Assembly (NCBI GenBank): GCA_036271035.1
Contig: DATBBK010000217.1
Span: 3,833-67,832 of the forward strand
Origin: Thermoanaerobaculia bacterium
GTDB taxonomy: Bacteria > Acidobacteriota > Thermoanaerobaculia > UBA5066 > Gp7-AA6
Direction of reading: 5' to 3'
DNA length: 64,000 bases
The position numbers and the translations under genes were made by a program. Below are positions 21,918-23,943 of this stretch, in pieces; positions within the stretch are counted from its first letter, which is position 1, and each line of letters starts with the position of its first letter. The notes below the pieces were generated by a model. The model did no database searches and had not been told where the DNA came from. It was given only the letters and a program-made list of their open reading frames with translations.

Positions 21918-22458
21918 TCATTGCGTCCCGATACCCTTCGTCAACTGCTCCAGGCGAAGTCGGTCCAGCGACGCAATGGGAAGCGACGTAAAGAGTCCGA
22001 GCCGCCGGTAGATCTCCACCGCTACTCTCTTCACCGCTTGCCTCTTCTCCTCCTCGGCGCCCTGCGCGGCGTCGGGATCCTCGGAGCCCCAGTGCGCGAT
22101 GATCGGCTGCCCCGGCCAGACCGGGCAGGATTCCCGAGCCTTGTCGCAGACGGTGATCACGAAATCGAACTTCACATCGCGGAACTCCTCCCACGACTTG
22201 CTCCGTGCGGCGCTCGCGTCGATGCGGTAGCCCTCGCGCAGGATCTCCAAGACGTGAGGGTTCACTCGGCCCTTCGGGTTCGCACCGGCGCTGTAGACCT
22301 CGAAAGTGGACGGGATCGAGTCGCCGCAGGAAGAACTCCGCCAGGATGCTCCGAGCCGAGTTCCCAGTGCAGAGAAAGAGAATCTTGTATTTCTTCTGTG
22401 GGCCGGAACTCGTGTTTGCTCCTCCGCTCGCCGGGTCGCGCGGGGAAGCAGCCACCAC
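21918..22458 (-). CDS. arsC: arsenate reductase ArsC (LMW-PTP / thioredoxin-coupled type), frameshifted at about 22332-22334. N-terminal half in one frame (from GTG 22458), C-terminal half in the aqpS frame
   Basis: P-loop KILFLCTGNSARSILAEFFLRRL in frame X; FEVYSAGANPKGRVNPHVLEIL...FDFVITVCDKARESCPVWPG...HWGSEDP in frame Y; removing one C from the CCC run restores LRRLDPSTFEVYSAG. Confidence 0.6.
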
Positions 22459-23108
22459 GCGACGAGGACGAACCCGATCAGACCGATCGACTCTCCGAGC
22501 AGGAAACCTGGAACGTCCGCTGGACGAATCCCAGTAAACGTGTCGGTCAGCGAGCGAGCCAGAGTCACCGCCGGATTGGCGAACGAGGTCGAAGACGTGA
22601 ACCAGTAGGCCGCGGTGATGTAGACCCCGACTGCGAGCGCGATCTCGCCATTGCTGCGGCCTTTCGCAACGAAGATGATCGCCAGGAGACCGAAGGTCGC
22701 GATGGCCTCGGCGAAGATGAGAGGGAATCCCGCGCGTGACTTGCCGGAGAGGGCGACGATCGGCTGGCGAAACATGACGGAGGCGGCAACCACGCCGGCA
22801 ACTGCGCCGACGAGCTGAGCCGGCACATAAGCAAGCGCGTCGGACCAGGGACGCCTTCCGAGCAGGGCTTCGGTTACGGTGACCGCCGGATTGAGATGAC
22901 AGCCCGAGAAGCCCGCGAACGCGGAGATGAGCGCGACGAGTCCCGCGCCGGTGGCGAGGCTGTTCGCGAGGAGCGCGACGGCCTCATTTCCGGCGGCGAG
23001 CCTCTCCGCCATGATTCCGGACCCGACCACGATCGAGAGCAGGAACGCCGTCCCGAGCCCTTCGACCAGAGTGCGCCGTCCGAGCGACGGGCCCGGCTCA
23101 GCAAGCAC
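21918..23108 (-). CDS. aqpS: aquaglyceroporin (MIP family, AqpS/GlpF-like arsenite channel). MIP domain spans about 22424..23108; the frame reads on without a stop into the C-terminal half of arsC
   Basis: two NPA boxes (HLNPAVT, NPAVT) and six TM helices; GTG 23108 lies 23 nt after the arsI stop (the listed upstream start 23261 would overlap arsI); no in-frame stop until 21918. Confidence 0.6.
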   Translation of the reverse strand: MLAEPGPSLGRRTLVEGLGTAFLLSIVVGSGIMAERLAAGNEAVALLANSLATGAGLVALISAFAGFSGCHLNPAVTVTEALLGRRPWSDALAYVPAQLVGAVAGVVAASVMFRQPIVALSGKSRAGFPLIFAEAIATFGLLAIIFVAKGRSNGEIALAVGVYITAAYWFTSSTSFANPAVTLARSLTDTFTGIRPADVPGFLLGESIGLIGFVLVAWWLLPRATRRAEEQTRVPAHRRNTRFSFSALGTRLGASWRSSSCGDSIPSTFEVYSAGANPKGRVNPHVLEILREGYRIDASAARSKSWEEFRDVKFDFVITVCDKARESCPVWPGQPIIAHWGSEDPDAAQGAEEEKRQAVKRVAVEIYRRLGLFTSLPIASLDRLRLEQLTKGIGTQ

Positions 23109-23131
23109 GTCCGAGTGCGGTTCCGCTCCAG

Positions 23132-23548
23132 CTACCGGGCGCAGCACGCTGCCTGGGCCTCCCGAGAGACGTCCTCGACGTCCTCCAGGACCGTGTAAAC
23201 CTCCCACCTGTTGCCGTCCGGATCGCTCACCCAGAACTTCTCCTGGAGCGCGTAGCAGCACGCCTCCCGCTTCTCCTCTTCGGAGACGATGCCGCGTGCC
23301 TTCAGGTCGCTGCGCCAGCGGCGGACCTCGTCCAGGCTGCCGACTCGGATTCCAAGATGCGAGAGCGACCCTCCGGATGCTGAGCTGTTCAGCCCTGGCT
23401 GCAGGGCAATGTGGATCTCGGGGCTCTCGCTGACGAACTTCGCGTAATCATCCTTCAGCTTGCGCGGCTCGCCGAAGAATCCGCGGTAGAACTCGACGGC
23501 CTTCGGGAGATCCGAAACATTGAGAGAGATGTGAACCGCGGGTGCCAT
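23132..23548 (-). CDS. arsI: ArsI/CadI-like glyoxalase/VOC family protein (candidate C-As lyase) with vicinal Cys pair
   Basis: GGAGG RBS 6 nt upstream of ATG 23548; close similarity to the ArsI/CadI pattern (HISLNVSDL...EFY...DYAKF...EACCYALQEKFWVSDPDGNRWEVY); extra C-terminal CC. Confidence 0.75.
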   Translation of the reverse strand: MAPAVHISLNVSDLPKAVEFYRGFFGEPRKLKDDYAKFVSESPEIHIALQPGLNSSASGGSLSHLGIRVGSLDEVRRWRSDLKARGIVSEEEKREACCYALQEKFWVSDPDGNRWEVYTVLEDVEDVSREAQAACCAR

Positions 23549-23601
23549 GATTGCCTCCGTTCTATTGTTCGAGAAACGTCGAACAGTCAATGCAATTTTT
23601 T

Positions 23602-23943
23602 TTAGACCGCCTTGGCAAGAACATCCGCGATGCCGGCAATTGCTGATTCGTTGCGCGAGTAGTACGTCCATCGCCCGCGTTTCTCGGCGTTCACGAGTCC
23701 CGCCCTTCGAAGGAGAGCCATGTGATGAGAAACAGCGGCTTTCGAGAGGCCGACCGCGACCTCGACGTCGCAGGCGCATAGCCCCTTCTCGTCGCGGGCG
23801 ATCAGGTCGCAGCATGAGCGACCCCGCGCCTTCAACAGCTCCAGAATCCGGAGTCGCGTCGGGTCGCTCAGCGCCTTGCAGATCAGAAGGACTTCGCTGC
23901 GGTCCGCCACAGTTCGAAGTTTATAGAACTGTGATCGAGCCAT
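23602..23943 (-). CDS. arsR: ArsR/SmtB family metalloregulator
   Basis: wHTH (LSDPTRLRILELL...VSHHMALLRRAGLV) and As(III)-binding Cys cluster (SCCDLIA...GLCACDV). Confidence 0.85.
   Translation of the reverse strand: MARSQFYKLRTVADRSEVLLICKALSDPTRLRILELLKARGRSCCDLIARDEKGLCACDVEVAVGLSKAAVSHHMALLRRAGLVNAEKRGRWTYYSRNESAIAGIADVLAKAV

Follow-up and report, generated by a model that had tools for sequence, protein, structure and literature searches.

Can a reading frame that runs from an aquaglyceroporin gene (aqpS) into an arsenate reductase gene (arsC) be taken at face value as a fusion, or is it the trace of a damaged locus? The question is raised by a 64,000-nucleotide (nt) stretch of the Thermoanaerobaculia bacterium contig DATBBK010000217.1 (hereafter the window). 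The locus in the window is a standard arsR/arsI-like/aqpS/arsC arsenic-detoxification cassette, yet its aqpS frame has no stop and continues into the second half of arsC, while the first half of arsC lies in another frame. The original prediction offered a sequencing indel or pseudogenization as explanations. These were the right alternatives, and the evidence now favors a real mutation: an extra T is found both in the window and in a second contig (L085), a third contig (L003) lacks it, and arsC carries another lesion besides. We consider it probable that arsC is undergoing stepwise pseudogenization and that the frameshift is polymorphic in the population.

The Two Halves of arsC

The split of ArsC over two frames, and its repair by deletion of a single base, had both been proposed from the first reading of the DNA and were confirmed by profile matches. 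Codons 1–37 (TSSGPQKKYKILFLCTGNSARSILAEFFLRRLDPVHF; minus strand, 22303–22413) lie in the frame of the open reading frame (ORF) that starts at GTG 22458. They cover positions 1–22 of the LMWPc profile (KILFLCTGNSARS...) and contain Cys15 and Arg21 of the P-loop. Codons 38–164 and the stop codon (minus strand, 21918–22301) lie in the frame of the MIP channel gene aqpS, cover profile positions 28–99 and contain Cys89, Cys96 and Asp112; by tblastn this part is 98% identical to the restored protein. The restored, continuous ArsC scores 57 bits (E 3e-15) against LMWPc, compared with 19 and 29 bits for the separate pieces.

Read from ACG, the restored protein has 164 amino acids (aa), which is the length typical of the family. 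It is 79–88% identical to the 12 ArsC homologs aligned with it (163–165 aa) and keeps every column that is invariant across this 13-sequence alignment, including the catalytic residues. The P-loop CTGNSARS (CX5R) occupies codons 15–22 of the ACG frame, which is not the frame of the rest of the gene, and aligns to the ArsC structure 1jl3. The motifs VCDKARESCP, with the second and third redox cysteines seven residues apart, and SEDPD, with the catalytic Asp, also align to 1jl3 and are invariant in the 12 homologs. We take Cys15, Arg21, Cys89, Cys96 and Asp112 to correspond to Cys10, Arg16, Cys82, Cys89 and Asp105 of Bacillus subtilis ArsC (1jl3).

Restored ArsC aligns end to end with the Staphylococcus aureus pI258 and B. 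subtilis enzymes (1jl3, 1ljl). Unlike these, the window protein belongs to an environmental clade of 164–165 aa proteins with a longer C-terminus, and it is interrupted as encoded. Its best family is arsC_pI258_fam of NCBIfam, yet the score of 85.3 bits is below the equivalog cutoff of 174.3 bits. The gene as it stands has neither an uninterrupted frame nor a usable start, since ACG replaces the Met codon and a +1 insertion follows codon 37.

An Extra T After Codon 37

The inserted base could be placed by comparison with the homologs and with L003 (JGI 3300036832, Ga0376695_0008141), a contig that shares 99.82% identity with the window across 6657 nt. On the minus strand the window reads CCACTTTCGAGG, with TTT at 22305–22303, where L003 reads CCAC-TTCGAGG; this is the sole difference between the two inside the ars genes, and the relatives likewise have TT. 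Removing one T gives LDPVHFEVYSAG (RRLDPVHFEVYSAG), in agreement with the invariant residues of the homologs. His36 and Phe37 are present in 12/12 of the homologous ArsC proteins, most of which read LDPVHFE.

The extra base had at first been taken for a C in a CCC run at 22332–22334. Neither point held up: homologs and L003 alike locate an extra T in the TTT run at 22303–22305, and the CCC run itself sits at 22312–22314. Deletion of a C from that run, which gives LDPSTFEVYSAG (LDPSTFEV), was rejected as a restoration because it replaces the invariant His36. The codons made by the insertion, TTT and CGA, are rare in the genome (3.6 and 4.6 per 1000, with CGA making up 4.3% of the Arg codons), whereas TTC and GAG are common synonyms.

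A Substitution at the aqpS/arsC Overlap

The change of the arsC start from ATG to ACG is a second, independent lesion of the gene. The closest relative with a full locus and separate genes is L001, an ENA forest soil contig of ∼78% nucleotide identity, in which the aqpS stop and the arsC start share the ATGA of CCATGAC (GGAGGATTCGCCATGAC). Alignment with L001 and its ORFs places ACGA (minus strand, 22410–22413) at this position of the window, which reads ACACGAG (GGAGGAGCAAACACGAG). One T to C change at 22412 thus converts the aqpS stop TGA to CGA and the arsC start ATG to ACG at once.

The aquaporin frame is stopless because this change removed its stop codon. The lack of a stop had been noticed before, and the MIP frame is indeed open from 23261 to the stop at 21920–21918; its cause, TGA to CGA, had been missed. 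The substitution is common to the window, L003 and L085.

The ancestral state is well supported by other relatives. Among 80 related genomic loci, 44 MIP-motif matches had an ArsC P-loop nearby. In 14 of the genomic loci arsC lies downstream of the MIP gene; a MIP stop comes before the P-loop in every one of these (14/14), none reads through, and several have ATGA-type overlaps. At the column of the window's ACG, Met is found in 12/12 aligned ArsC homologs. The Shine-Dalgarno sequence GGAGG (22421–22425) is kept 7 nt upstream of the ACG. In E. coli, the codon group that includes ACG initiates at ∼0.1–1% of the level of AUG (bioRxiv 10.1101/063800), and ArsC is therefore probably poorly expressed even from an allele with TT at 22303–22305.

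Two Alleles in Near-Identical Contigs

The contig L085 comes from the same JGI metagenome as L003 (Ga0376695_0013250, 5994 nt). It equals window positions 16436–22429 with 1 mismatch and 0 gaps and carries TTT as the window does, whereas L003 has ACGA together with TT and an arsC that is in frame. L003 ends 15 nt past its TT and L085 begins 126 nt ahead of its TTT; the two contigs agree over those 126 nt and then diverge. We infer that two coexisting alleles made the assembly graph split at this point. The TT of L003 is not a random contig-end error, because it restores exactly the conserved reading.

The quality of the sequence around the frameshift was judged by comparison with independent contigs and by Pfam checks of the neighboring genes. 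Over the ∼12.6 kb that could be compared, the sole other indel lies in an intergenic patch dense in single-nucleotide polymorphisms (SNPs), and no damage is seen in chrA, chrB, the DUF1259 gene, soxC or the other ars genes. Two Logan contigs (SRR11836447) match the window at 100% identity and end short of the junction. The window assembly does not look error-prone by these comparisons, and the frameshift is most likely a real variant that segregates in the population and not an assembly error.

Exact-pattern scans of metagenome_contigs and genome_contigs for the sequence at the T run and at ACGA gave no match, a result of little weight as these collections evidently do not contain the source samples. 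No genome of the same species turned up in a protein-guided genome scan, whose best match had 60% amino-acid identity. A six-frame Viterbi scan of the GC content at third codon positions (GC3) labelled most of the ars and sox region as non-coding, but it is too coarse here, where GC3 is lower.

The SNP-dense patch deserves a separate remark. Ten differences between the window and L003, one of them an indel, are found within ∼150 nt (window 25073–25219), while the rest of the alignment is almost identical. The patch comprises the 3′ end of a hemerythrin gene and the convergent intergenic region facing yjbQ.

A Two-Step Model for arsC

In an operon of this kind ArsR derepresses transcription on binding As(III), and ArsC, a thioredoxin-type enzyme of the low-molecular-weight protein tyrosine phosphatase (LMW-PTP) class, converts arsenate to arsenite. 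The AqpS channel then lets arsenite flow out of the cell down its gradient, and the ArsI-like enzyme deals with methylarsenite. The first step of the proposed decay is the T to C change in the ATGA overlap, which removes the aqpS stop and the arsC ATG together. As a result the aqpS frame runs on into arsC out of frame, and the starts left to ArsC are ACG and a GTG further upstream, which lacks a Shine-Dalgarno sequence. The expression of arsC would have fallen sharply, and such weak expression would relax selection on the gene before any frameshift arose.

The second step is the insertion of a T after codon 37 (TT to TTT), which we observe as a polymorphism. It cuts Cys15 and Arg21 of the P-loop off from Cys89, Cys96 and Asp112 and by accident places the remainder of arsC in the read-through frame of aqpS, creating an open frame of 409 codons. 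The ACGA presumably preceded the extra T, on grounds of parsimony, because it is present in both alleles and the extra T in one. The decay appears to be recent, because every family-invariant column has been kept.

The products predicted for the two alleles are quite different. The TT allele, seen in L003, would give an AqpS of 294 aa (245 canonical residues and an out-of-frame tail of 49 aa) and an ArsC of 164 aa with ACG for ATG. The TTT allele, seen in the window and in L085, would give the single 409-codon frame (minus strand, 21918–23147), which consists of AqpS (245 aa), a 36-aa stretch read out of frame from the 5′ part of arsC, and ArsC residues 37–164. In this frame TRVPAHRRNTRFSFSALGTRLGASWRSSSCGDSIPST stands in place of ArsC residues 1–36, and Cys15 and Arg21 of the CX5R motif are gone. 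In the LMW-PTP fold the residues replaced here form the central first strand and supply the nucleophile. Being without the P-loop and the first β-strand, the chimera can therefore not be an arsenate reductase, and we infer that it would be unable to reduce arsenate. No protein resembling it was found in a collection of 5.8 billion proteins. Judged by its sequence, the 409-codon frame is a by-product without a catalytic P-loop, and the arrangement as a whole is, on the comparisons made here, a private mutational state and not a conserved design.

No second LMW-PTP ArsC was found within the 64 kb window. The locus suggests that loss of arsenate reduction is segregating in a natural population in which the channel and the ArsI-like gene are intact. 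It also illustrates that a single substitution in an ATGA overlap can knock out signals of two genes, and that what looks like a fusion ORF may arise as an artefact when a locus carries two lesions; here, gene callers would annotate a 400-aa "aquaporin/phosphatase." The biological significance is otherwise small: arsenic cassettes of this kind are widespread, and the present one is a mutated copy from an uncultured bacterium of high GC content.

Several points weigh against stepwise decay. Both alleles at 22303–22305 are known only from assembled contigs, and the TT allele is seen solely in the last 15 nt of one of them. The window and L085 may share a sample of origin or derive from related ones, in which case their agreement is not fully independent proof. 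The predicted loss of arsC expression through ACG draws on E. coli data, that is on another organism, and arsC may instead be initiated at GTG 22458 or 22455.

Alternative Explanations

The main rival is that the extra T of the window arose in sequencing or assembly, the true sequence being TT with an unbroken arsC that nevertheless has ACG for ATG. This would fit with the near-identical L003, which has TT at exactly 22303–22305, with the location of the extra base in a short homopolymer and with the perfect conservation of the restored protein at all invariant positions. L085, which was assembled separately, has the same TTT and no other indel in its 5994 nt, however, and a homopolymer of 3 nt is not a typical error site. 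The window is also free of further indels relative to the independent contigs, save the one in the SNP-dense patch, and the neighboring genes are intact. We therefore regard an error as unlikely. A real insertion might still be bypassed by the ribosome. In a leaky +1 frameshift, tRNA-Phe would slip from UUU and re-pair on UUC while the rare CGA occupies the A site, so that some ArsC with the sequence ...HFEVY... is made. The context is suitable, as UUU CGA G becomes UUC GAG after the shift, which are exactly the ancestral codons, and the slippery P-site codon followed by a slow A-site codon recalls prfB; yet any insertion into a T run would create such a site. In a programmed prfB-like system the interruption would be expected to be conserved, whereas the gene is uninterrupted in 12/12 homologous proteins, separate and intact in 14/14 loci and in frame in L003. 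Direct reading of the sequence just upstream of the site revealed no Shine-Dalgarno-like stimulator, and with a damaged arsC start little translation would reach the site in that frame. Leaky frameshifting is accordingly highly improbable, and any slip at UUU-CGA would at most be incidental and not programmed.

It can also be asked whether the 409-aa frame encodes a working AqpS-ArsC channel-enzyme fusion at an early stage, or else an AqpS that has gained a C-terminal domain. The frame is open over its full length, and the database relatives include many in-frame MIP-LMWPc fusions, with the two domains in either order (P0001, P0004 and P0008 are examples of 360–430 aa). A similar AqpS-ArsC fusion occurs in Frankia alni. 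The fusion of Salinispora tropica is known experimentally (Wu, Song and Beitz, 2010, as cited in PMC6205960), and as in that protein a single frame of the window begins with a MIP channel and continues into sequence of LMW-PTP ArsC. The known fusions keep all of ArsC in frame, including its P-loop, whereas the P-loop of the window is in the other frame and the join consists of 36 residues produced by two mutations. No single frame of the window thus holds a complete MIP and a complete ArsC. Since the in-frame TT allele coexists with the TTT allele, ArsC residues 1–36 with Cys15 and Arg21 have been swapped for 36 out-of-frame residues and no similar protein is in the database, we hold a functional fusion to be extremely unlikely. 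A genuine fusion had been called the less parsimonious option from the outset; as encoded, it is ruled out by the fused frame skipping the CX5R P-loop. Among the ArsC homologs and related loci compared, none shares the interrupted arrangement (12/12 proteins and 14/14 loci). Finally, it is very unlikely that the TTT allele is not dead, be it that the chimera is made and is a snapshot of how fusions originate (loss of the ATGA stop followed by a frame-restoring indel) or that slippage at UUU-CGA yields a trickle of full-length ArsC.

The aqpS Channel Gene

The preferred reading, stepwise pseudogenization of arsC, leaves the canonical part of aqpS (minus strand, 22413–23147) intact. It has 245 codons when started from GTG 23147, and its end coincides with the position of the stop codon in the relatives. 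Among stand-alone MIP proteins the closest relatives have 243–247 aa, start with MLRPL or VLRPL and end with ...RRxE(D/E)xx, within two residues of the window's CGA. The translation matches Pfam MIP with 71.3 bits (cutoff 25) and contains two NPA boxes, HLNPAVT and FANPAVT, while its score for NCBIfam TIGR00861 is below the cutoff (73.5 vs 171). Conduction of As(III) by this AqpS-like channel is putative.

The start of aqpS is ambiguous between GTG 23147 and GTG 23108. In the gene calls of L001 and L002 aqpS overlaps the end of arsI by 16 nt, a start equivalent to GTG 23147 in the window, whereas the call in L003 corresponds to GTG 23108. L002 (JGI 3300015371, ∼80% identical) differs in another respect. 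Here (L002 2360–2833) the homology breaks off within the 3′ end of aqpS, behind GESIG, and arsC is missing thereafter, which may reflect a separate loss or rearrangement of arsC in the same clade.

In the Sinorhizobium meliloti-type ars operon, AqpS is the exit route for the arsenite made by ArsC, according to the account of Yang et al. (2005) given in PMC6205960. As in that operon, a MIP channel gene replaces ArsB/Acr3 beside the arsenate reductase gene in the window, under ArsR. The window differs in having an additional ArsI/CadI-like gene, an arsC that has no ATG and is frameshifted, and an aqpS without a stop. The order arsR/arsI/MIP/arsC, with aqpS next to arsC, is shared with L001 and L088.

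The Other Genes of the Cassette

The gene order given in the original prediction was borne out by ORFs and profile matches. Directly after tRNA-Asn (23990–24064) follow, all on the minus strand, arsR (23943–23602), an ArsI/CadI-type VOC gene (23554–23132), the MIP channel gene and LMW-PTP arsC. Cassettes of the form arsR/arsI/(aqpS or acr3)/arsC recur in soil metagenomes (L001, L087 and L088).

The arsR gene (minus strand, 23602–23943) encodes an ArsR/SmtB metalloregulator of 113 aa with the cysteine motifs SCC and LCACD. It matches Pfam HTH_5 and HTH_20 as well as NCBIfam HTH_metalloreg (84.6 bits, cutoff 55), and the protein is identical on contigs L003 and L004.

The ArsI/CadI-family VOC metalloenzyme gene (minus strand, 23132–23554) encodes 140 aa with the vicinal cysteines EACCYA and an extra C-terminal CC. 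The protein scores 133.1 bits for NCBIfam ArsI_CadI_VOC (cutoff 116) and matches chains of 5c4p and 5cb9 (E 2e-20) with the motifs ACCYA, HLG and WEVY aligned. These structures were deposited under the name Glyoxalase/bleomycin resistance protein/dioxygenase, and we take them to be ArsI of Thermomonospora curvata. The metal-binding residues of the window protein were assumed from what is generally known of ArsI. Like the ArsI/CadI structures it has the vicinal Cys pair, HLG and WEVY; what sets it apart is a further Cys pair at the C-terminus (AACCAR), which L001 has as well, and its activity is putative. This second vicinal pair lies in AQAACCAR at the very end of the protein (window 23132–23160; L001 3990–4016). 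The aligned 5c4p chain stops short of the Cys-pair tail and the comparison is uninformative there.

Genomic Surroundings

The cassette lies at one end of a block of lower GC content (window 11000–24064; 0.62–0.67 vs 0.70–0.75 in the flanks) that extends up to tRNA-Asn. The block also contains chrA (13725–14933), a DUF1259 gene (15568–16458), chrB (16455–17441) and a soxC-type sulfite dehydrogenase gene (20675–21886) with a cytochrome c gene (20125–20682) beside it. By gene content and composition the block, including the ars operon, looks like a metal-resistance island. Integration of an element at tRNA-Asn was also considered and rejected, as a search for a direct repeat of the tRNA gave none.

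The soxC-type gene starts at GTG 21886, 32 nt past the arsC stop, with a strong AAGGAGG Shine-Dalgarno sequence and on the same strand as the ars genes, with which it may be co-transcribed. In the relatives L001 and L088 the position after arsC is held by other genes.

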